Below, piece by piece: positions 4,749 to 61,383 of a stretch of 64,000 nucleotides of DNA (position 1 is the first letter of the stretch; every line of letters begins with the position of its first letter). The notes beneath the pieces are model-generated. The model searched no databases, was not told the DNA's origin, and saw only the letters and a list, made by a program, of their open reading frames with translations. The position numbers and the translations under genes were made by a program. The stretch covers positions 248,001 through 312,000 of the forward strand of contig JAIVFI010000010.1 of assembly GCA_025558095.1 (NCBI GenBank). Direction: 5' to 3'. This DNA is from Hyaloraphidium curvatum SAG 235-1. Its lineage: Eukaryota > Fungi > Monoblepharomycota.

Positions 4749-5891
4749 ATGTCGCAGGCCGCGAAGGACTCCATCGTGAGCTTACCTTGTCCAAACGACA
4801 TTTTCACTCGGTATGCTGACCACGCATGCCTGTCTCCCGGGCGCGATGCAACCCGCGGGATGCTCCCTCGCCGGCCGGAATCCACCCACATTCCTGCATC
4901 AAATCCTGAAGGTTTCCGACATCTATGAGGACATTCTGCAGGACCTGGCTATGGACCCGGTGTTCACCGTACACAGGATCCAGAAGCTAGCGAAGTCGAT
5001 ATGCCAACTCTGTGGCCAGAAGTGGGTGTGAAGGACCGCCGAAGCGGAGGACTCCTGACCCTTAGCATCGCCCCTCAATTGCTCCAAAACGTTGGTTGCA
5101 GGTGTCGACATTATGGTGAGCCGCCTTGAGGCCCTTGGGACGTGTTGAAACCGCTCACACCGGGACTCGCCATAGCACTCGGCCACGGTCGGGACATTTA
5201 CGGCAACGACGCGTCGCAGCTGGCCGGCGAAAAGTACGATTGCCCGTCTTGTCGGAGGCCATATCCGCCGGCCAAATTTGCGATGCACTTGGAGAAATGC
5301 CTCGGACTAGGCCGGACCGGGATGCGGGCGGCGGCGCGGTCTGCAAACGCTGCCATTTCCAACGACGGACGCTCGGTCTCCGAAGCGGAGACTGAATCGG
5401 ACTCTGACTCCAAGAAGAAGAAGAAGAGCGGCTCGAAGAAGAGCGGGAGCAGGCCCAGTTCCGTCCAGCCGCCAAAGAAGAACGGCAAAGCAGTTTACGG
5501 GCCTCTGGACACGTACCTCACGCCGATGCAGCCTGCTCCGCCTGCGGGAAAACCCATCATCAAGATCAAACTGTCGAATCGACCCGCCAACCCCTCGCCG
5601 CTGCAGCAGTCGTCGTCTTCGGTTCCTTCCGAAGCAATGACGCCATCGTCAAACAACGACATGAGCGAAGATTGGGACATGGGGAACGCGGAGACAGAGG
5701 AAGACGACCTCGGGGACGAGGACACGGATGATGGCTCGGCTTTTGCCTCCTTCTCGCAGCAGAACAGGCGGAACAGCTTCGCCGGCAAGACGGTGCCCGG
5801 CCAACGGCAGGATGCCGTCGACTCCTGGGTTTCGCTGGGCGATGACGACATGGAGAGCAACCAGTTCTCGTTTTTCCCGAGTGTGACGTGA
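4749..5891 (+). CDS. SGF11: SAGA deubiquitination module subunit Sgf11/ATXN7L3
   Basis: IYEDILQDL helix, DIYG, and zinc finger CPSCRRPYPPAKFAMHLEKCLGLGR followed by a low-complexity tail; the start is approximate. Confidence 0.8.
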
Positions 5892-11505: not shown

Positions 11506-12102
11506 CTACTTGATCGGCACGTTCCGACGCCAAAACTCGACCGCCTCCATGTACTTCTCCCTGTCCAGGGGCACCCCGCTCCCGCCCTCGGCCTTCCCCA
11601 GCGCATTCCGCATCATCGTGATCGGCGTCATGCTCAATTCTTTGTCCTCGAGCTGGCCTTTCACGGAAATGATGCCCCAGGGACGGTCGCTCGACGGCGG
11701 ATCCATGCCCATGGCCTCGCACTCCTCCACGATCTGCTCCCGCGAGTAGAGGATGACGTCCAGCCACGTCGCCTCGGGCGGCTCGAACCGCGTCCGGTCG
11801 ATGTACTGCACCAGCACGGGGAGCTCCTTCGGCGTCCGCGCCTCGTACCCGCTCTCCACCAGACCGCGGTTCTCCTCCGTCAGCGGCGCGTACCCGCACC
11901 GCAGCCCGGGCACGAAGTTCCGCACGAAAATGTGCTTGCAGAAGGGCGCGTAGCCGTCTACCAGCGGCGCCCCCGCGGCGTGGAGCTCGTTCACTTTGGC
12001 CTCGAACGCGGCGGGGTCGTAGGGGATTCGCGTGCCCGTATAGGTCGGATCGTTGAATTGGCGGAGGCAGAACGCGTCCAGGAAGAGCTGGGGGGCGGAC
12101 AT
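11506..12102 (-). CDS. DUF3228-family protein, intronless
   Basis: LVDGYAPFCKHIFVRNF, SGYEARTPKELPVL, LDVILYSREQI, WGIISVK and PITMMRNALG..GGSGVPLDREKY match my recollection of DUF3228. Confidence 0.8.
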   Translation of the reverse strand: MSAPQLFLDAFCLRQFNDPTYTGTRIPYDPAAFEAKVNELHAAGAPLVDGYAPFCKHIFVRNFVPGLRCGYAPLTEENRGLVESGYEARTPKELPVLVQYIDRTRFEPPEATWLDVILYSREQIVEECEAMGMDPPSSDRPWGIISVKGQLEDKELSMTPITMMRNALGKAEGGSGVPLDREKYMEAVEFWRRNVPIK

Positions 12103-12290: not shown

Positions 12291-13589
12291 CTAGAACCTC
12301 GCCTTCGTCCCGGCGACGATCCAGCCCCTTAGCACCACGCCGCTCACCGTCTCCTCGAACGGCATACCCCCGGCGACCTCGCCGACCCCCGGCCCCGCGA
12401 GAATCCTGACCGATCCCGGTGTGCCCAGCTCGCCGGCGAGCTTGGAAGCGAGGTTCACCGCGCCGCCCGAGACGACGGTGCCCCCCGGGGCGCGGGAAGG
12501 GAGCACGAGGATGTCGCCCTGGGCGATGCCGATCGAGGGCGGGCCGAAGGAGGTGTGGAGGGCGGTTAGGGTGCGGGAGAGTGAGAGCGCGGCGGGGATC
12601 GATGGGGCGAGGAGGAGCGCCGCGCCCGAGGCGTTCTCGACGACCGTGCAGCCGGGGACGGAAGCGGTCGCGTGGGCAACGAGGTCCGCGGCGGCTGCTT
12701 GCAGAACAAGGGTGTCGAGGATCTGCGAGGGCCGGCCGGTCGCGCGGAGCCGGAACTCGACCATCACCACCGTGCATGGGTGGGCGTAGCCGCGCGAGAG
12801 AGACTCGAGCAGCGCTTGGCGGGAGGTCGCCGGGGCTCGCTGCAGGGTGCCGAGCTGCTCGTAGACGGAGTGCGAAAAGGGCACTGGCGGGTAGTGTTCC
12901 TCGGCCCCTGCCTCTTCGCGATCGGCGACAACTGGCGACGACACGCCAATGCTGTCGACCGGTGTCCGCGGGGTGACAGTATAAACCTCGAATACTTTCG
13001 GAACCAGGTCCTCCCTCTTTGCAAACGCGAACGAATCGCGCCCGCCCGGATCCATCGCGTCGAGCGCTGCCCTTGTGACCAGGGTCTCGCCGCCCGAGGT
13101 GCATTCCTCGGCCAGGTGCGAGACCGTTTCCGCGTCGCCCCCGTAAAGTACACCTCCGATGGAAAAGAAGTCCCCGCAGTGAATGCAGACGCCAATGGAA
13201 ATCCCGCCGGCGCGCCGCGCGTGGGCTTCTAGGGCGGCGCGGACGGCGTCGACCACGGGCACCGTCCGCGGGTAGAAGAGCACCGTGTTGTCCGCCTCCC
13301 AGGCGGCGCCGTCCAGCGGGACGCTGCCGTAGGAAAGGCCCAGCGAGTGCACGGACGCCTTCATCTCGGTCAGCGCGGCCAGCACTTCCAGCGGCCCGCG
13401 CGCGGCGCTCAGCCGCGAGAGCCCCGCAGAGTCGCTTGCAGCAACCGTGCCGGATAGTTTGAATGGCGCCAGCAGCTGCGAGGCGCGTTCGTCTGTCCGG
13501 GACCCGCTTTGCCACGCGGAGATCAAATCCGGCGGGGCACCGTGTCCTGCCTCGCGCCGGTCGTACAGCGCCGGGGCCGACGCCGCCAT
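12291..13589 (-). CDS. Soluble tandem class III adenylyl/guanylyl cyclase-like protein, intronless
   Basis: Domain 1: SDSAGLSRLS, WEADN, IGVCIHCGD, LYG..E.VSHLAE and GETLVT. Domain 2: IGIAQGD and SGGAVNLASKLA. Confidence 0.75.
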   Translation of the reverse strand: MAASAPALYDRREAGHGAPPDLISAWQSGSRTDERASQLLAPFKLSGTVAASDSAGLSRLSAARGPLEVLAALTEMKASVHSLGLSYGSVPLDGAAWEADNTVLFYPRTVPVVDAVRAALEAHARRAGGISIGVCIHCGDFFSIGGVLYGGDAETVSHLAEECTSGGETLVTRAALDAMDPGGRDSFAFAKREDLVPKVFEVYTVTPRTPVDSIGVSSPVVADREEAGAEEHYPPVPFSHSVYEQLGTLQRAPATSRQALLESLSRGYAHPCTVVMVEFRLRATGRPSQILDTLVLQAAAADLVAHATASVPGCTVVENASGAALLLAPSIPAALSLSRTLTALHTSFGPPSIGIAQGDILVLPSRAPGGTVVSGGAVNLASKLAGELGTPGSVRILAGPGVGEVAGGMPFEETVSGVVLRGWIVAGTKARF

Positions 13590-15189: not shown

Positions 15190-16484
15190 TCAGAACGGGC
15201 AGCCGCGCCATTCTTCGCCGTCCACGAGGCCATCCGCGATGGTGAGGCGCTTGGGCTCGATCTCCACTTGCATGTCGTTGGCACGGGCCAGTTCGAACTC
15301 GTGGATGTAGATGCGGAGCTGGCAGAGCAGCACGTAGCCGTCCTCAACGGTCCGTACGTCGAGGTAGTCGTTGGAGACGGTGAACGGGAAAGACGTCGGG
15401 GCGTTGGTCAGGAGCAGCGCGGACGGAGGCGGGTCCTCGTCGACGTAGTCGTCGTCGAACTCGGGCTGCAGCTGCACGGCGGCCTTGATACGCGCGGAGC
15501 GGATGCGACTGTCGTCGAGCACCACGGCGGCCATCGCGGATTGCCCCATCAGCCAGACCTGGAAGCGGAACTTGATTCCTCCGACAAAGACGGCCTTGGG
15601 CTCGAGGTCGATCCGGTTGGCGGCGGGCAGGTCCACTGCGGGCAGCTCGAGCTCGAAGGTGTTGCACAGGTACGACCGTTCGCCTTCTTTGGGGATTGAA
15701 AGGAACGAGATGGCGTATGCCAGGTGCTCCGCGGCGGCTGCGTCCATGTGCGCTTGGAGGTCGCGGCTTTTGCACTTCCAGTTCAGGTTAGACGACACCT
15801 AAGCCAAGATTTCCCACAGTACCCACTTTGTGCGAGCAGCCGGGAAAGGAACACGGAACTATCCTGTGCGGGCATTCGTTGCGGTGCTGGGCGAGGAGCT
15901 GCCGCGCGAAGAAGTTGTTGCAGCCTTCGATGTCGCACGCGAGCAAGGTCTCCGGGCAAACGTCGGCCTTGTGGTGCTGCAAACGGCACGTTATGATCTG
16001 CGGCGTGCAAAGCGGCATTGATCCGTACCTGCATGTTGTCGGGAGGTCTCACGACGGTGTCGCAGTCCTCGCACCGCGCCTTGGTGCACCTTGTCTGGTA
16101 GTGCTCGTCGAAATGGCCCACCGTCGCCTTCCTGCCGCTCTCGAGCGGGCAAGGAATGTTCGGCACTTTCATGTAGCGGCGATAGAGGAGCACCTTCGTC
16201 GCCAGGTCGAGAACCTGCTGAAGGTTGCAAGGCCTGCGGCAGACGGGGCACGCAGTCCCGCCGCGGCGGATAGCGCCCGTAATGCATTCGCGGCAGAAGA
16301 AGTGGCTGCAGGCCTCCAGAATGACGGGCTCCATGTGGGGGAGGACGAAGTCCATGCAGATGGAGCACTCGTGGTCCCGTCGGGCCTTCGCACCCGCGCT
16401 CTCGCGTCCGGCCGCCGCGGCAGGCGGTCCAGCGCTCAGCGCGGCGTTCGCCATCGCGGGAAGCGGCTGCGCAACGCTCGCCAT
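15190..16484 (-). CDS. TRAF-like protein A: RING + TRAF-type zinc fingers + divergent MATH-like C-terminal domain
   Basis: C3HC4 RING CSIC...CSHFFCREC...CPVC; fingers HHKADVCPETLLACDIEGC and HRNECPHRIVPCSFPGC; LQAHMDAAAAEHL; beta-rich tail with AVFVGGIKFRFQV; two introns. Confidence 0.75.
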
Positions 16485-16632
16485 TGCTGAGCAGCTCTGT
16501 TCGCGCGCTCGCTACAAAGACTCGCGCGCGAGAGGGCGGCGGGGATCACGGTCGAGGCGGCCTCTTTCCCACTCACCCCCGGAACCGCCCCTCAGCGCTC
16601 GAGGGCGGCGAGGCCGAGGCACGGAACGCGCG

Positions 16633-18278
16633 ATGCTGACGTCCGACGACGACCAGAGGGACGCGCGCTTCGAGAGGGCCGAACATGCGCAGTTCGAGTG
16701 CGCCGCGTGCCACCGCTTCTGCTTCCCGCACCTGGACCCGCGAATCGTCGATGTTGCCGACTGCTACCACCTGCTATGCGGCGTGTGCGTGGACCGCGCG
16801 CTGGCCGGCGAAGGACCCAGCCGCAGTTGCCCCGATTGCTCCGCGCGCTTCTCCGCCAGGGACGTGAAGCCGCTCGATCACGACATAGCAAACTGGAGGC
16901 TGCTGCTCGGCACCTTGCACGGCTGTCCGCTCGGGTGCGGCTACAAGGGCGACGTGCAGAACATCGAGGCTCACCTCCTCACTTGCCCGAAAACGCGGTG
17001 CGACCTGTGTGGAATCACCGTCGCGGTCCCGAGGACCGTGGAGGAGCACCAGCAGAATGCCTGCCCGAGGTTTCGCGTACAGTGCAAGCATGCAGGCTGT
17101 CTGGCATCGCTGCCACGCGAGACGGTCGAGACGCACGACATGTTCTGCGACTTCAAGGTCGTCGAGTGCAGGTCGCCCGGCTGCAAGCACAAGGTACCCT
17201 GGAGAGCTGGTGCGGTCTTTGCATGCTGACGCGTCCCTCAGTGTCCGAGGAAAGACTTGAAGGAGCACGAGAAATCGGCCGCGCTCGAGCACGTCAAGCT
17301 GGCCACGGGACTCTTGCACAAAGCCGAAAACGAGGTAGCTGTCGTCATTGCCCTACTGGGAGATCCGTTCACGTGAATTGCTTTTAGGTCTCGCGCATCA
17401 CGAGCCAGATGGCGCTGAAGACGGAAGACAACCTCCGGCTGACCCGTCAGAATGCGACTCTGGCTCCCATGCAGGCGGAGGTGAAGCGCCTCAGCGATCT
17501 CCTGAAGACGAGCGAGAACACGGTGGGATATCTCACTGAGAAAATGCAGAACGCGGAGCGCACACGGGTGGATTCGCAGCGGGTCGAGGCGGCGCTGCGG
17601 GCCTCGCTGTCGGCGAAAGACGCAGAGATCGCGCGGCTCTTGTCGTCCGTCAAGCTGCACGAATCGGATGCCAAGGTCAAGGATGCCGAGATCGCGAACC
17701 AGCAGGCTGAGCTGGACCGGATCAGCGACGAGCTGCAACGTCTGCGTCCTCCCTCGGTGCCCGCTGCAATACGTGCCGATTCCAGCTACTCTGCGATTGG
17801 GAGCGTCGAGTTCTCGGTTCCGCACGGTTTCGGCCCTCCAACTGGTTCGCAGACTGCTGATCCGAACTGGAGCCTCTGCTTCCCTTCCAAGCCTATCCTC
17901 GTTGGCCCCATCGAGCTCCTGGCTCATGCTCGCGTGACGCATGCCGGGTTGGGCGTGGGTTTCGGCTTGGCAGACGCTCGGGTGCATCACATCAAGGCAG
18001 TCATTGCCCAAAGCTTGCTCCACAGCCCATCTCAACACCGCGTTGCGTCAACTCAGGTGCTCCACCACAGCGGCTCTTGGATTCCCGACATTCTGCATCC
18101 CGCTACCTCTGGAAGCATCTTCGACCCGGGCTGCCCCATCATTTCCAGCAGCGCTGAGAACGCGGAGAAGCACATCGTTGTTTCGTTCCATATTTCGACG
18201 CTGCGGATCGTGCTCAAAGGCAGCGAAGGCGCCGACGCCCCTTCGCGGACCGCTCGGCTTCCGAGGATCGCGAACTGA
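16633..18278 (+). CDS. TRAF-like protein B: RING + zinc fingers + coiled coil + MATH-like domain
   Basis: CAAC...CYHLLCGVC...CPDC, CPLGC..HLLTCP, HQQNACPRFRVQCKHAGC, HDMFCDFKVVECRSPGC, LKEHEKSAALEHVKL, coiled coil, FPSKPILVGPI. Confidence 0.8.
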
Positions 18279-18656
18279 CTGCGGAGGAGCGCATCCGCCA
18301 CAAGACCGTCGCAGAGCTTTTGCGACGCGCATGATGTCATCTTTACCTCTCTCCTTCGCACCTCTTGCACGGCCTGATGCACGATCAGGAACCTGTCGAC
18401 ACCTAGCCGCAGTCCGGCACCACGACGAGCTCGCTGCGCACTCCGTCGCTGATTGCACACTCAGTCACCACGTTCGCGATGTTTCGACTTCGTCTATTCA
18501 CTTTATCTCGTTTCGGGCACTAGTTTAGGTCTGTAAATGCTGATCAATTCAATCCACCACCCCCTATGTTTGGCGGTTGGCTTTGCATGGGAGACGGGCG
18601 GGGGAAGCCACTCCAAAGCTGTCGTCTCTGCCCCATTTCCGCCGACCGAGCCCGCC

Positions 18657-20174
18657 ATGGGCAGGCGGCTCAACCTTTTTGTAGCCGCGCTCGCCGCAGC
18701 GGGCGTCGTCGGCTGGCTGCTCGAGCCGCTGGGGAGCGCAAACACCGGCCGCGGCGGGCAACCGTCCCCCGGCGGATCTCTCGCGCACCACAAGCTGGGG
18801 GCGCGCAACGGAGGGCAGCATGCAATTAACGGGGCCTCCGTGTCGTGGAGCCCCGGCTGGTCCGACTTCCCCGGGCCTCCCGGCGGTTCCCTCGAGGGCG
18901 GGGCTGCCTGGTATGGGGGCGAGCTGTGGGTGGCCGGTGGATATCCTTGCGCTCACGGCACGCCGTTCGAAACGGAGAACGTGTGGAAGTACTCGCCAGA
19001 GTCCCGCTCTTGGTCTCCAGGCCCCAAACTGCCGGGGTTCCACGCGCACCACGCATTCAGCACGCTCCAGGAGACCAAGCACGGCCTGGTATTCTTCGGC
19101 GGGGTGAGGCAGCACTTCGACAAGGACAAGGACGGCAACAGGCGCCTGATCAACGACACCGGTGGCCTGCTGGTCATTCCGCCCGGCGCAACGACGTGGG
19201 AGCAGAGGCCTCCCCCTGGCGGCGTTGACATTGGGGGCATGGCCCACTGCACGTCCATGCGCCACGGACCCAATCGCCTGCAGTACTGCCTGTTTGGCTG
19301 CGGCGGCGACTACCTCAACGACACATTCCGGTTTTACTCTTTCGACCCAAACGCGCTGACATTTGACGCGCTGCCGGTGCCGCCAATGCCGACGACCCAC
19401 GCCCCGCTGCTCCTAGATGCCCCTCGCGAGCGCGTGATCATCATTTCAGGCCGGCCAGACAGGACCAAGGACCGCACTGCGCGCACCGAGGTGATGGCGT
19501 ACGAGATCCGGAACCGACGGTGGACGCCGCTCGGCAACATTCCGGACTGGGTCTACGTCTGCGAGGGTCGCGGCTACGTGCAGATTGACGACGGCTCGGC
19601 GGGGGGTAAGCCGACCGCGTTCCTCTTCGGCGGGCAGAACAACGCGGCCACAGAGTTCACGGTGCGCGACCTCTCGTACAGGGTTACTATCGAGGACGAC
19701 GGCTCGCTCAAGTGGGAACCCTGGACGAGGCTCCCCTTTGCCTCGTTCGGCCAGGCAGTCGTGGCCGCCCGGCCCCCCGTGGGCGGAAACGAGGACATGT
19801 CCGGGGGTATGCTGGTGCTGGGCGGCTCCGTCTCGGTCGGCGCGCACTGCACCTCTGCGTCTTTCGTGTACGACGGCTCCCCGGACCCGGCCGTGCAGGC
19901 TTCTGCTCCTCGGCTGCTGGCCCGCGCCGGCACGCCTCCGCGGGTGGTCGCTGCCTTCCTCGGGCCGCACCTGGTGACTGCCAAGCTGCAGAGCCTCCTC
20001 GAATCGGGAGTCGACAGGATCCACATGAACATCCTGCCAGATCTCGGGGTCCCCGAGATGAAGGGCGTGACGCTATCCAAATGGCCTTTGGTTGCCGTCA
20101 TCGACGTTGCGGGCGAGATCAGGACGGTGAGCTGCCCGGTCGACAGCGGATGCCGCTTCTACGGCTTCTTTTAG
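18657..20174 (+). CDS. Kelch-type beta-propeller protein with N-terminal signal/anchor, intronless
   Basis: Hydrophobic N-terminus LFVAALAAAGVVGWLL; kelch blades LWVAGGY...VWKY...W, LVFFGG, LFGGQ and LVLGGS. Confidence 0.75.
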   Translation: MGRRLNLFVAALAAAGVVGWLLEPLGSANTGRGGQPSPGGSLAHHKLGARNGGQHAINGASVSWSPGWSDFPGPPGGSLEGGAAWYGGELWVAGGYPCAHGTPFETENVWKYSPESRSWSPGPKLPGFHAHHAFSTLQETKHGLVFFGGVRQHFDKDKDGNRRLINDTGGLLVIPPGATTWEQRPPPGGVDIGGMAHCTSMRHGPNRLQYCLFGCGGDYLNDTFRFYSFDPNALTFDALPVPPMPTTHAPLLLDAPRERVIIISGRPDRTKDRTARTEVMAYEIRNRRWTPLGNIPDWVYVCEGRGYVQIDDGSAGGKPTAFLFGGQNNAATEFTVRDLSYRVTIEDDGSLKWEPWTRLPFASFGQAVVAARPPVGGNEDMSGGMLVLGGSVSVGAHCTSASFVYDGSPDPAVQASAPRLLARAGTPPRVVAAFLGPHLVTAKLQSLLESGVDRIHMNILPDLGVPEMKGVTLSKWPLVAVIDVAGEIRTVSCPVDSGCRFYGFF

Positions 20175-20366
20175 GAGGTGCATTTGTAAGAACAAAGGCT
20201 TTCCAAGCGTCTGTACAGCGCGAAGGGAAGTAGAGTGAAGGGTGGGCACCGGCGCACTGTTCGGGGTGTATTAATGGTGGCCAAGGTCCCGGCCCTCCAA
20301 GAGTTGTTCGCACGCACCTCACCGCGTTCGGCTCGAAGGCCGCTGGGTCGAAGCGGAAGACGCACG

Positions 20367-22186
20367 ATGCTGGCGTCCGAGGACGATCCGCAGCAGTTCT
20401 CGCAGACCTTCAGCCAGAAGGAGGAGCGCTTCGAGGACGACTCGCGAGCGCAATTCGAATGCGTCGCGTGCCACAGATTCTGCTTCCCGCATCTGGACCC
20501 GCGCATCATCGACGTCGAAAATTGCTCGCATGTGCTCTGCGGCGCGTGCTCGGACCGTGCTTTGGCCGGCGAGGGGCCCAGCCGCAGCTGCCCCGAGTGC
20601 TCCGCGCGCTTCTCCGCCAAGGATGTGAAGCCGCTCGGTCACGACCCCGCAAACCTGCGGCTACTGCTCGGCATTGAGCACGGCTGCCCACTCGAATGCG
20701 GCTTCGAGCGCGACGTGCAAAGCATCGAGGCCCACCTCCGTACTTGCCCGAACGCGCGGTGCGACTTCTGCGGAGTCACGGTTGCACTCCCGAAGACGGT
20801 GGTCGAGCACCAGCAGGACGAGTGCCCGAGAGCGCCGGTGCGGTGCAGGCACGCGGGATGTCCTATGTCCGTGCCTCGCGACAACTCGGAGACCCACGAG
20901 CAGTTCTGCGACTTCAAGGTCATCAAGTGCGCGTCTCCGGGGTGCAAGTTCGAGGTTTGCCCAGACGTTGGGCGCAGTGGAAGTGCACTGACCGTCGCAT
21001 CTCGCTGCAGTGCCGTCGCAAAGACATGGCCGGGCACAGGAACCTCGCCATGTTCACCCACCTCAAGCTCGCCACGGAACGCCTTGCCAAGGCCGAAAAC
21101 AAGCTGACCAAGGCCCTCAACGACCTCGCCCCTCTGCAGACCTCCCTATCGCACAAAGACGCCGAAATCTCGAGGCTCGCGGGCGAGCTGGCCGGCAAGA
21201 AGAACGACCTGCTGCTGCTCAATGCGTCGCTTGCTGAGAAGGTGGCCGAGAACGGCGCGCTGAAGGGGGCTCTCGAGGCTTGCGACGCAAAGGCCGCCCA
21301 GGACCGCGGAGCGCTCGCAGCCAAGGATGCCGAGGTCGCGCGCCTGCTCTCGGCCGTCAAGCTCCACGAGGCCAGCGCAACGGCCAAGGAAGGCGAAGTT
21401 GCACTGCTTCTTTCCGCTATCAAGCTCCAGGAGAACGGTGCCAGGGCGAAGGATGGCGAGATTGCGCGCCTTCGTTCCGCTGCGAAGGTCTACGAGGACG
21501 GCGCGAAGGCCAAGGACGCCGAGATCGCGCGCCTCCGTTCCGCTGCGAAGCTCCACGAGGACGGCGCAAAAGTGAAAGACGCGAAGATTGCCACCACGCA
21601 GGCCGAGCTGGATCGCATCCGCGCCGAGCTGGAGCAGCTTCGTACCGCGCAATCTCGCAGGTCGATCGTGTCCAACCAGCGTCACGTTCTGCGCGCATTG
21701 GTCGACATTCCGCTTCCCCGGGCGTTCCAACCTCCTGGGAAGAAACAGCGAAAGAACCCGAAGTGGGCTCTCTGGTTCCCCGCTGCGCCCGTCACGGTCG
21801 GCCCCATCGATCTCGTCGTGAACGCGTTGATCACCCACGACGGCCTCGAAGTTGGAGTTTCCCTGGCGGACAACCGCGTGCACCACCTTCGGGCGTACAT
21901 CTGGATGTCCGTGGACGGCCAGCGGTACCGGAACGTCGCCTCGTTCGAGTCGAAGCAGCTCCTGCACCACGGGGGTGACTTCCTGACCGACGTCCTCTAC
22001 CCGGTCGCGGAAGGGGAGATGTTCGACCGCAGGTGCCCCATCATCTTTGGCAGCGGCACGCCGGACAGGTACATCACCCTGAACGTCGACATCACCGTGT
22101 TCGACGTCGTGCTCAAGGGCAGCGAAGGTCCGACGCCTCCGACCAAGTCGTACAGGCTTTTCGACGACTACTACGACCACTACTAG
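20367..22186 (+). CDS. TRAF-like protein C (close paralogue of B) with expanded coiled-coil repeats
   Basis: RING start nearly identical to B (FECVACHRFCFPHLDPRIIDV), the same zinc fingers, an intron at about 20955-21010, coiled coil, and C-terminal WALWFPAAPVTVGPI...VLKGSEG shared with B. Confidence 0.8.
21320..21592 (+). repeat. Intragenic 63-nt (21-aa) tandem repeat, 4 full copies plus a partial copy
   Basis: Units start at 21320, 21383, 21446, 21509 and 21572, with consensus AKDAEIARLRSAAKLHEDGAK. Confidence 0.85.
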
Positions 22187-58229: not shown

Positions 58230-59258
58230 TCAGCTACCTTCCCTCGTGACCCCGTCCCTGATCGAACTGTGGCCTACGAGCTCCGTGTCGGCTGCCTGCG
58301 ACAACACCGGCGGCTCCATCCACCAGATGCCGAGCCCGTGACCCTGTCCTTGCCGCCAGTTGTAGTCCTTTGTCTGGTCGTCCATCATGTGATCAATCGG
58401 TAAGGACAGGGGTAACCGAGAGATCATGTCCAGCGCACCCGAACGCGAGACGACGTAGGCATGGGTGCACCGGGCTTTGAATGCCCTGAACACGCGGGGA
58501 TTGGAGAGGGAGACGTTGTAAAGATCGAGGATGACATTGAGCGACGCCCCAATGGGAGGCTTTCCCGGTGCAGGCTCGGGGCCGTGAACATTAAAGCAGG
58601 AGCCGGGGAAGAAGAGCGAGTAGTTGCTCGGCAGCCAGCTGCCTGCCCGCACCATCGATGTGAGCGCGGCGCGGAAGTCCGCGGCCACAAACGCCTTCAG
58701 CTCCGGATCGACAGCGACGTCGTCTTCCAGGATCAGCGCGTTCTTTAGTCCCCTCTGCAAAATGTCCCAGTAGATGGCATAGTGCTTCGCGCCTAACGAC
58801 ACTTCGCCGGCCGCGAGCTCGTACCACGTATCCCGGGGCGGAATCGCACCTAGCCGACCGTCTGTCGAGTTCGGTCCGGGGGCCAAACACCGCCGGTCGT
58901 GGGCAGTCAATGCTTCCCTGTCGAAGCCAACGACGAGCTCCGGTGCCGGTTGAATCCCAGCCAAGATTGTTCGCAGATAGTCTCGCCGCTGCTTGAGCGG
59001 AGAGTAGTGTGCGACGTAAATCGCTTCGGGGAAAGCAGGGGCCTGTCCGCGACCCTGGTCCGGGAACAAAGGGACGAAAACTTTGTCTCTCGACGGGCGG
59101 TCGAAGATTTCGAGGGCGCATTTCAGGAACGGATTCGACAGGGCAGCTCTGTAGACGCGACCCCGAGGCGGAGACATGTCGTCCCGTCCGTGCCAGATCC
59201 AGCCCGTCAGCGAGGCAAGCAAAATCAGCAACAGCAGAGGTCTCCTGTGCCGCGACAT
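58230..59258 (-). CDS. GT25-like glycosyltransferase, type II membrane protein, intronless
   Basis: N-terminal TM, SLGAKHY, ALILEDDV, CTHAYVVSRSGA and LPIDH. Confidence 0.75.
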   Translation of the reverse strand: MSRHRRPLLLLILLASLTGWIWHGRDDMSPPRGRVYRAALSNPFLKCALEIFDRPSRDKVFVPLFPDQGRGQAPAFPEAIYVAHYSPLKQRRDYLRTILAGIQPAPELVVGFDREALTAHDRRCLAPGPNSTDGRLGAIPPRDTWYELAAGEVSLGAKHYAIYWDILQRGLKNALILEDDVAVDPELKAFVAADFRAALTSMVRAGSWLPSNYSLFFPGSCFNVHGPEPAPGKPPIGASLNVILDLYNVSLSNPRVFRAFKARCTHAYVVSRSGALDMISRLPLSLPIDHMMDDQTKDYNWRQGQGHGLGIWWMEPPVLSQAADTELVGHSSIRDGVTREGS

Positions 59259-59360
59259 CTCGACGCATCGCTCCCACGCGTCTTGAGTTTGAAGTCGATC
59301 GCGCCGCGTCCCAAACTCACCCGCGATCGATTGATCGCGCAGTCCACGTCGCGGTCGGAG

Positions 59361-61383
59361 ATGGTGGGCTGGCAGTCTTTGCGCCATGCGACTGCGGATT
59401 TAACGAATTGATTCCTGTGTCGGACTCCGCGGGGCCGCAGCACGGGCGAAAGATCGTCCGTTCCTCGGCGGAGGCCGCCGCGGCCAAGAAGGCCAAGGAC
59501 GCGCAGAAGATCGCGGCCTACCGCGATGCGACGTCCAAACTCGCAGTCAAGGTTCTTGTGGCTTACCATGCCCCGTGAGACGGTTGCTGACGGCCGTCGA
59601 CGCGACAGAGGGCCGCCGGGGAGCTGGACGAGGAAGCGTTCGGTCTGACGTCGACCTTGCTGGGTCAAAACCCGGAGTTCTACACCGGTTGGAACATCAG
59701 GAGGGAGATTTTGGAGACAATTTTCAGCGGCGCGTGGGAATTCCTCGCGAATGGCTTGGGAGGGCGCTGACGGCCGTGCGCGCCAGATCGGAGGAGGAGC
59801 GGCAGTCGCGGTGCAAGGCGGACCTGAGGTTCGGCGAGGACTCGATCAAGCAGAATCCAAAGTCGTACTGGGTGTGGAACCACCGGCGGTGGATCCTGGA
59901 GCACATGCCGCAGCCCGAGTGGGAGCGCGAGTTCAAGCTGGTCACGGCGATGCTGGCCCTCGACGCTCGGAACTGTTCGTCTCTGCACTCCTCCGACGTC
60001 GGCATCTGTTGACGCGCACTGTTTCTGCAGTCCACGGATGGGATTACCGCCGCTGGCTCGTCCAGTCGAGCGGCCTCACGACGCCCAAGGACGAGCTCGA
60101 CTACACGACCAAGAAGATCAACGAGAACTTTTCCAACTACTCGGCATGGCACTACCGTTCCCGGCTGATACCCGCCGTTTACCAAGACCGCGAAGGGCTG
60201 GCGGCCGCCGTGGCGCGCGACCTCGAGACCGTGCGCAACGCGGTGTTTACCGAGCCCGCTGACCAGTCCGCGTGGCTGTACCAGCGGTGGCTTCTCGGAC
60301 GCGGTGGGCTGCACCCAGGTTCCGGTCTCCGCTCGAGCCTAGACTGCTTTCTACACAGCCGATCCGGATCCCACCTGCATTTGCGTCTCGCAAGCCGGCG
60401 GACGACTCTTTGCCCTCTTCAACAACCCCATCCTCTCGCCCTCCGACGCCCTCGACGCCACCCTCACTCCCGCATCCGGAACCGCCCACCAAACCTCCTT
60501 TTCGCCCTGCAGATCTGGCCCTAAGCAGTTTTCCCGGCTCTGGGAATGCCGGCTGCCAGCGGGCCTCGACGCCGCGGGCGCCACCCTCGACCTCTCCCCC
60601 GCATCTGCAGCCGACGCCAAAGGCAGGCCACTATCCTGCAAGCCGCTCACCGTCGGTGCACCACTTTCCCCGCCGGAACCGGAACCGGACAGCGAGGCCC
60701 TCGCCGCCGCCCTCCGTACCGAGGAGGGCTACCTCCGCGAGCTCATCACCCTTGAGCCCGACAGCAAATGTGGGTGCCTCCCCCACCCCTCCGCCGCATC
60801 CTCTCACAGCCGCTCCGTCCCAGGGCCCCTCCTCACCCTCGCCTTCTTCCTCGCCCGGCAGCACGAGCTCCTCCCCTCCTCCCCCTCCCCCGCCGAGGAA
60901 ATCCTCTCCCTCGCCGCGCGCCTTGAGTCCGCGGACCCGGCGCGGGCGGGGCACTACCACGACCTCCGCAGCGCGTGGCTGGTCAGGCGGGCGCTGGCGG
61001 CGCCGGGGAGCGCGCTGGACCTGAAAGGCACGGGGCTGACGGGCGTGCCGGACGCCGAGGCGGCGTTCGATCGGCGGGAGGTGGACCTCTCTGGGAACCC
61101 GGGGCTGCGGACCGCGCCGCTGCACCTCTTCCGGTGCGCGGAGACGGTCGTCCTGGACGGCACCGCCGTCTCTCGGCTGCGCGGGCTGGCGGGCTCGCCC
61201 TCGCTGCGCCGCCTCTCTGCGCGCGGCTGCCCCGTGTCGGATCCGGACGAGGCGGAGGCGGTGCTGCGTTCGTGCCCGGCGCTGGAGGCCTTGGACCTGG
61301 GCGGGTGCCCGGTCGCGGCGGACCCGGGCTTTGCGACCCTGCGTCAGAGGTATCCTGTTCTGTTGGCCACGGCGGAGCCGTAA
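59361..61383 (+). CDS. BET4: Rab geranylgeranyltransferase alpha subunit with C-terminal LRRs
   Basis: M|[61 protein letters not shown] and LRRs (VDLSGNP, LDLGGCP). Confidence 0.88.

Follow-up and report, generated by a model that had tools for sequence, protein, structure and literature searches.

A gene for a putative two-domain class III nucleotide cyclase, probably of bacterial origin, among spliced eukaryotic genes

The window, that is, the whole stretch of 64,000 nucleotides analysed here, contains eukaryotic genes encoding O-GlcNAc transferase, Sgf11, RING/TRAF fingers, an MCM protein, Prp31, an adaptor mu subunit and a forkhead protein. Among such spliced genes, on a contig of 818,743 bp, lies a gene for a short protein, named P0001, which a preliminary description had read as an intronless soluble cyclase with an active site divided between two domains. 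The locus raises the question of whether P0001 is indeed such a cyclase, from where its gene was acquired, and which cyclic nucleotide it would make.

Reading frame and surroundings

The minus-strand frame at 12291-13589 is open over 432 codons, and all the motifs quoted in the preliminary description are real: SDSAG (D53), EADN (D100), AETVSHL (residues 153-159), VVEN (E318) and VNLASKL (N379 and K383). The features referred to below are listed here, with conservation counted over an alignment of 76 rows, comprising P0001 and 75 near-full-length matches, with fragments and long proteins omitted.

12291..13589, minus strand: coding sequence of P0001, a fused two-domain class III nucleotide cyclase-like protein of 432 aa (open reading frame, homology, model, probable RNA contig)
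12969..13547, minus strand: predicted domain 1, C1-like, residues 15-207, with N-terminal helices (model; profile match, E 3e-16)
12306..12896, minus strand: predicted domain 2, C2-like, residues 232-428 (model; profile match, E 1.8e-17)
13431..13433, minus strand: Asp53, first metal-binding Asp (76/76 aligned members)
13359..13361, minus strand: Lys77, a family-specific conserved Lys (73/76)
13290..13292, minus strand: Asp100, second metal-binding Asp, in the motif W-x-A-D-N (76/76)
12636..12638, minus strand: Glu318, first purine-reading position (Lys in 60/76, Glu in 6/76), at the predicted interface
12474..12476, minus strand: Val372, at the second position that reads the purine (Asp/Glu in every Lys-type member) and at the predicted interface
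12441..12455, minus strand: Asn379-x3-Lys383, motif for the ribose and the transition state, in which Lys stands where Arg is usual (74/76 each)

One contig of run X1, a single run that is taken as RNA by guess only and may derive from the window's own sample, spans 12293-13369 (83% of the gene length) gap-free and with no differing letter; in genes neighbouring P0001 the same run leaves out GT..AG introns, which are 48-64 nt long. The first 73 codons lie outside this contig, where absence is no evidence either way, and are collinear with the bacterial relatives. The best-looking GT..AG candidate in this uncovered 5' part, of 60 nt, is unlikely to be an intron because its splicing would remove the family-conserved D10, P19 and W26. 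The gene thus appears to be intron-free, as had been described, an intron in the first 73 codons being unlikely.

Neither a Pfam search (E<=1) nor an NCBIfam search returned a cyclase, LRR or PP2C match. The maximum 19-residue hydropathy is 1.63, at residues 130-148; since this peak is a strand in the predicted model, P0001 would have no membrane helix, and the reported absence of TM, LRR and PP2C parts holds. With P0001 alone as query, no cyclase was found among PDB sequences (the DARPin matches obtained are due to chance), a word-index search returned only the protein itself, and a first GTDB scan found no relatives. In the ESM Atlas its nearest neighbours are two clusters from bacteria, one of 447 and one of 401 aa (score 0.97), in which about 30% of the members carry PF00211.

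Some other particular features of the window were recorded. A DUF3228 gene (11506-12102, minus strand, E 4.9e-80), covered gap-free by a probable RNA contig, lies directly downstream of the P0001 gene on the same strand. A cluster of RING/TRAF zinc-finger genes occupies 15190-22186, in which 16636-18278 and 20319-22186 look paralogous, with coiled-coil repeats, and a Kelch-repeat gene (18537-20174, plus strand) lies between them. At the start of the Sgf11 gene (5024-5175) run X1 has a joint that leaves out 150 nt; its ends are non-canonical and 10 other letters stand in between, perhaps a micro-exon with an intron on each side. A match resembling glycosyltransferase family 25, a family common in bacteria, is found at 58233-59399 (minus strand, E 7.9e-08).

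Predicted fold and active site

The AlphaFold2 model of P0001 built with the 76-row alignment reached pLDDT 90.2 and pTM 0.89, against pLDDT 38 when folded without an alignment. Its top Foldseek match is human sAC (E 1.6e-12), the sAC matches as a group having E about 1e-12 and TM 0.54-0.56. In VIA-align, residues 7-431 span both C1 and C2 of AC5 (Z 25.9, 333 aligned residues, rmsd 3.8), followed by AC9 and AC8, sAC (Z about 21) and the two-domain PycC 6YII (Z 19.9). When residues 15-210 and 228-428 were folded as separate chains, they paired with a score of 0.80, the best of three controls scoring 0.01; runs shared at least 76% of contacts, with partner pLDDT of at least 78. In the calibration of such pairing, run without the ligands that the P0001 runs included, 51 of 78 solved pairs attained the mark, as did 2 of 108 mismatched ones; the pass of P0001 may reflect likeness rather than binding, because like complexes are already solved. 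The predicted interface comprises residues 56-59 and 94-99 of domain 1 and 318, 372, 379, 383 and 415-418 of domain 2, and residues of both halves therefore fit one composite site. The fold and the pairing of the domains are predicted, and the model is of a class III fold arranged as a head-to-tail pair, so that a soluble, C1/C2-like single-chain cyclase fold with a single composite site is well supported at the level of the model. The C1/C2 pseudo-heterodimer of the preliminary description is in agreement with this structure prediction.

The positions of the site were fixed by alignment to Ma1120 by way of a single-domain bacterial family described below. Domain 1 carries the metal-binding Asps and the phosphate loop and lacks the purine, Asn and Arg/Lys residues, while domain 2 carries the base-reading residues, Asn379 and Lys383 and has neither the second Asp nor the DxSG loop. 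The predicted composite site (site A) comprises D53 and D100 with E318, V372, N379 and K383; the mirror-image positions (site B) are E278 and G322 with A96, V147, E154 and H158, and site B should be dead because domain 2 has no phosphate loop. The complementary split reported earlier is present and family-wide, its motif being N-x3-K and not N-x3-R. The statement that domain 2 lacks the Asps needs one refinement, namely that Glu278 occupies the first metal-Asp position, where E is found in 31 and K in 21 of 80 rows.

Both metal-binding Asps characteristic of the class III superfamily are present as D53 and D100. In the usual Asn-x3-Arg motif the Asn is kept as Asn379 and the Arg is Lys383, with Lys in 74/76 members and in 30/32 single-domain relatives; PycC enzymes may also use Lys in this motif. 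P0001 lacks the triphosphate-positioning Arg of beta4 and Lys of beta7-beta8 listed among class III site residues (PMC2576301): the former aligns, from Ma1120, with Gly133 (Gly in 68/76) and the latter appears, as read off the model, to be replaced by Ser416 at the last hairpin turn. Membership of the canonical site is not claimed, because the losses of basic residues are family-wide. On the alignment, the three missing canonical basic residues are family traits rather than damage in P0001, and K77, R59 and S416 may act as stand-ins for phosphate binding. By the same comparison, the preliminary description overlooked the family-wide nature of the split, the Lys for the catalytic Arg and the loss of two phosphate-binding basic residues. 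W97, N101 and E161 are each kept in 75/76 members. P0001 keeps 33 of 41 conserved columns, which places it among the lowest five of 80 and on a long branch; two of its missed columns look like alignment shifts.

A bacterial family of fused cyclases and its origin

A phmmer search with P0001 against 1.84 billion representatives gave 145 matches at E<=0.001, 108 at <=1e-10 and 28 at <=1e-30, the full-length relatives being mostly about 400-420 aa. P0102, a repeat protein of 4004 aa, is a chance match. Only 15/76 aligned members match PF00211 at E<=0.01. When PDB sequences were searched with a profile of the 76-row alignment, class III cyclases were matched, with Rv1900c and Ma1120 ranking first (E about 3e-10) and no sAC among the top profile matches. 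A GTDB scan queried with an 18-row Lys-type sub-alignment, and therefore blind to Glu-type members, matched 206 stretches, of which 80 were kept, and a metagenome scan added 45 loci. The family is present in cyanobacteria, Patescibacteria, Gemmatimonadota, Myxococcota, Actinomycetota, Bacteroidota and others; phylum counts follow record titles and may be off. P0001 belongs with these proteins by full-length homology, the D,D / N,K split and W-x-A-D-N, and the complementary site is, judging from the alignments, the standard design of this bacterial family and not an invention of the eukaryote carrying P0001.

The distribution is patchy: the family occurs in 16/401 Myxococcota genomes and in 1/401, 1/201 and 3/401 genomes of three other samples, centres included. 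No member of the Glu clade was found in the four phylum samples, all matches there scoring 175-321 bits, and the eight closest relatives of P0001 were not found across 1,404 sampled genome slots. Plasmids, phages and viral contigs held no relatives. A search for members longer than 768 aa found none at E<=1e-15, but was weak, having missed three such relatives known from phmmer. Over 125 family loci, no conserved neighbour was found beyond close kin or genus-level synteny. For 102 same-strand neighbours, 74 were scanned at E<=1e-8, after dropping near-duplicates and cutting long ones to 600 aa; they belong to mixed housekeeping families, with no cNMP-binding or TIR family among them.

Several loci show local peculiarities. 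The family gene is split by frameshifts or stops at L075:6001-7102, L124:3095-4223, L125:3-1119 and L186, the break in L075 falling near the domain boundary. In a sub-clade comprising P0016, P0156 and P0157 the catalytic Asn is replaced by Tyr/Phe and the phosphate loop is altered, making them probable pseudo-enzymes. In some Patescibacteria-like loci (L014, L092, L095 and L097) greA/greB lies directly downstream, as a local linkage, and in Pseudanabaena (L028-L069) the family member is adjoined by genes for a LuxR response regulator, a lipoxygenase and a TPM-domain protein.

Two further proteins, P0146 and P0126, led to a bacterial family of about 205 aa with a single domain, present in 40/121 Myxococcota genomes and bearing the motifs DLSGFS / KxE(G/A)D / VNxASKLGED (P0146, P0126, L141-L170). 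In its 32 rows all six site residues stand in one domain, with Asn in 32/32 and Lys in 30/32. It has Cys for the beta4 Arg, and no solved structure is closer to it than Ma1120. In hhalign comparisons, domain 1 of P0001 matched this family at E 3e-16 and domain 2 at 1.8e-17, against 1.4e-10 and 2e-16 for six ordinary cyclases, so that the margin is small for domain 2; the two halves matched each other at 2.7e-07. Because both halves resemble the single-domain N-x3-K family, the fusion is likely bacterial and apart from sAC, tmAC and Pycsar enzymes. These comparisons are most simply, and likely, explained by a tandem duplication in bacteria from the single-domain family, after which the two copies underwent complementary losses.

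The sequence of P0001, the conservation of its residues, its bacterial relatives and its eukaryotic setting are all observed directly. In the trees, P0001 is nested among bacterial rows, which agrees with the bacterial derivation proposed earlier. It groups with eight proteins, presumably bacterial, with SH-aLRT 97 in a quick tree (LG+G4, 83 hand-chosen rows) and support 98 in a FastTree of 194 rows. Transfer of the gene from bacteria is likely on this evidence. Three longer proteins, P0094, P0104 and P0110, together with the fragment P0085, are of 822-1172 aa, with low-complexity extensions or inserts, and look eukaryotic. These proteins share the fused cyclase of the family, in its Lys/Asp version, and make up a clade of their own (99) at a distance from P0001. 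Constraining the three together with P0001 was weakly rejected (p-AU 0.042); if they are eukaryotic, this suggests that they were transferred separately, and their placement hints at a second transfer, into protists.

A search of openly accessible papers, by title or abstract start, found no description of the fused family, which is apparently undescribed; no assayed member of it or of the single-domain family was found. According to a 2022 perspective, no fused dimeric class III adenylyl cyclase is known from bacteria, and it asks what fusion serves (PMC9552081); among pyrimidine cyclases, clade A PycC with its two domains is an exception already. The fused family described here, which has the adenine pair in several phyla and stands beside its likely single-domain parent, makes this question testable with small soluble proteins. 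It also poses the question of whether Lys can replace the catalytic Arg, and its natural Lys/Asp, Glu/x and Gly/Gly variants are a resource for tests of base choice.

Base choice and relation to known cyclases

The first purine position is Lys in adenylyl cyclases and Glu in guanylyl cyclases, and P0001 has Glu318 exactly at this position, not merely near it as the preliminary description had placed it. Glu/Cys as opposed to Lys/Asp sets the purine choice in class III cyclases (PMC2576301); P0001 has the Glu of the guanylyl cyclase signature and Val372 in place of its Cys. In the 76-row alignment all 60 rows with Lys318 have Asp/Glu at 372 and 15 of the 16 others lack the acid; in a set of 194 rows the figures are 155/155 and 37/39. 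These changes are not independent, because most non-Lys rows occupy one region of the tree. In the nine rows of the P0001 clade, Glu318 is found in seven, the catalytic Asn is lost in three, and residue 372 is V, Q, S, S, G, G, N, N and D.

Adenine reading is clearly lost in P0001 as judged from these residues, and a preference for GTP would be likely, though Glu by itself does not secure it. Of the two products suggested previously, cGMP, still a prediction, gains support from the loss of both Lys318 and the acid at 372, and nothing positive emerged for a non-standard nucleotide.

A neighbouring clade of 23 rows (including L082, L083, L088, L094, L100, L102, L106, L108-L110, L112, L117 and P0008) keeps D, D, N and K, but the residues at its two purine sites are small or vary, being for the most part Gly/Ser and Gly. 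Its members are possibly base-blind or act on another substrate, and adjoin autotransporter and outer-membrane barrel genes.

The reading preferred here, to which we give about an even chance, is that this intron-free eukaryotic gene, likely of bacterial origin, encodes a soluble single-site two-domain cyclase making cGMP over or alongside cAMP; its activity, its GTP preference and any regulation are what we infer. In the proposed mechanism, two metal ions would be held on domain 1 by Asp53 and Asp100, with loop 54-59 binding the phosphates. Domain 2 would close over domain 1, Asn379 orienting the ribose and Lys383 taking over the role of the usual Arg, while Glu318 would read guanine and Val372 would mark the lost adenine-reading acid. 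The mirror-image second site would be dead and could have the role of glue or of a regulatory pocket. A compact single-chain maker of cGMP/cAMP could be a scaffold for tools.

A bolder and more tentative reading is that the C1/C2 single-site design arose independently in bacteria, in a minimal enzyme of 400 residues that binds phosphate by a chemistry of its own. One branch of the family would then have changed from ATP to GTP, and the family would have been captured by eukaryotes at least twice, giving the organism that carries P0001 a bacteria-derived cGMP source invisible to Pfam; its dead site might be gated by a ligand, for which the forskolin and bicarbonate pockets are the model.

Among the rival explanations, the one that survives best, unlikely as it is, holds that P0001 is a pseudo-enzyme or decaying gene, which has kept the fold and maybe binding of nucleotide and metal and makes no cyclic nucleotide. 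The three replaced basic residues and the position of P0001 among the most divergent members are in line with this, as are the absence of a sensor domain and of a conserved partner gene, and the loss of both purine readers in the neighbouring 23-row clade. Variation at the second purine site and loss of Asn in three of the nine rows of the P0001 clade would also fit relaxed selection. However, D53, D100, N379, K383, W97, N101, K77 and E161 are all kept at a best identity of just 38%, the frame is intact, and a probable RNA contig covers the gene.

It is rather improbable that P0001 is active and base-relaxed with cAMP still as its main product. Lys/Asp is the common state of the family (155/194), and Val372 differs from the Cys/Gly of typical guanylyl cyclases. 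In Ma1120, K101E/D157G lowered AC activity by 84% and raised GC activity by 414% at pH 7.5, and such E/G mutants turn over ATP faster than GTP, this one still favouring ATP (kcat/Km 1.92 vs 0.29; PMC4215837). Against this, both adenine readers are gone from P0001, and Glu in seven of nine clade members looks selected rather than random.

Still less credible is a pyrimidine or other non-standard product, as in the two-domain clade A Pycsar cyclases (PMC11224242), to which the 6YII match and weak PADLOC PycC matches of 25/76 members, to one model and at best 5.5e-07, would point. P0001 itself matches no PADLOC PycC profile, ordinary purine cyclases match it better than 6YII, the adenine pair prevails in the family, the 74 scanned neighbours contain no cNMP-binding or TIR family at E<=1e-8, and Val372 does not obviously narrow the pocket.

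Bacterial contamination or mis-assembly, to which the intronless gene, the exclusively bacterial named relatives and a probable RNA contig not joined to the neighbours might point, is very improbable, since the flanking genes lie about 150 and 240 bases away on the 818-kb contig, composition is host-like (GC3 0.84 vs 0.72-0.95 in six neighbours), the nearest relative is just 38% identical, and run X1, which splices the neighbours, holds the gene without a differing letter.

The preferred single-site cyclase can be compared with several known systems. Like P0001, mammalian tmACs (AC1-9) have one chain with the metal Asps in the first domain and the base, Asn and basic residues in the second, and AC5 is its best structural match. 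P0001 differs from them in its 9-14% identity, short linker, N-x3-K motif and Glu/Val at the purine sites; its halves are closer to the bacterial single-domain family, and the absence of the two six-helix membrane anchors excludes it from the transmembrane enzymes. The sAC protein (ADCY10) and bacterial sAC-like enzymes, among which the enzymes of Chloroflexus are cited as relatives that bicarbonate activates (PMC11006738), share the soluble C1/C2 pseudo-heterodimer with one site, but the whole of P0001 is two domains only, and sequence kinship was rejected at 12-14% identity, the halves being nearer the single-domain N-x3-K family.

Pycsar clade A PycC, bacterial like most of the fused family, has two consecutive cyclase domains, and PucC, the Pucsar cGMP cyclase, reads guanine by Glu (bioRxiv 10.64898/2026.08.12.744502) as a single-domain homodimer, in contrast to the two fused domains of P0001. 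The pairing of a cyclase with a cNMP-binding TIR/TM effector that defines these systems was not found at the family loci, among the 74 same-strand neighbours scanned. Ma1120 and Rv1900c, the closest solved sequences to the family (single-domain TM 0.78-0.79 by target length), differ from P0001 in forming homodimers of a single domain and in having Arg at both the transition-state and the beta4 position. The single-domain family of about 205 aa, itself known only by automatic names, shares with P0001 the N-x3-K motif, the acidic motif that follows and the N-terminal helices, and would be a two-site homodimer because its six site residues stand in one domain. DUF2652 cyclase-like proteins have one domain only, whose residues are E,K/H,R or K,E/R (PMC4886424); DUF2652 is not among the two Pfam families matched by the 76 members, and the published residue table differs.

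P0001 has none of the LRR, PP2C or rhodopsin/TM parts of Cyr1 and chytrid nucleotide cyclases. Fungal Cyr1 has RA, LRR and PP2C domains, and P0001, with no such Pfam match and 432 aa only, was rejected as a Cyr1 protein. Bacterial-like tandem AC domains are reported in Blastocladiella (PMC9730499). Surveys of chytrid cyclases used PF00211, to which P0001 gives no match, indicating that counts based on this family overlook real candidates. P0001 is accordingly assigned to none of the tmAC, sAC, Pycsar and Cyr1 groups, and on its predicted structure it would work like the catalytic core of tmAC and sAC.
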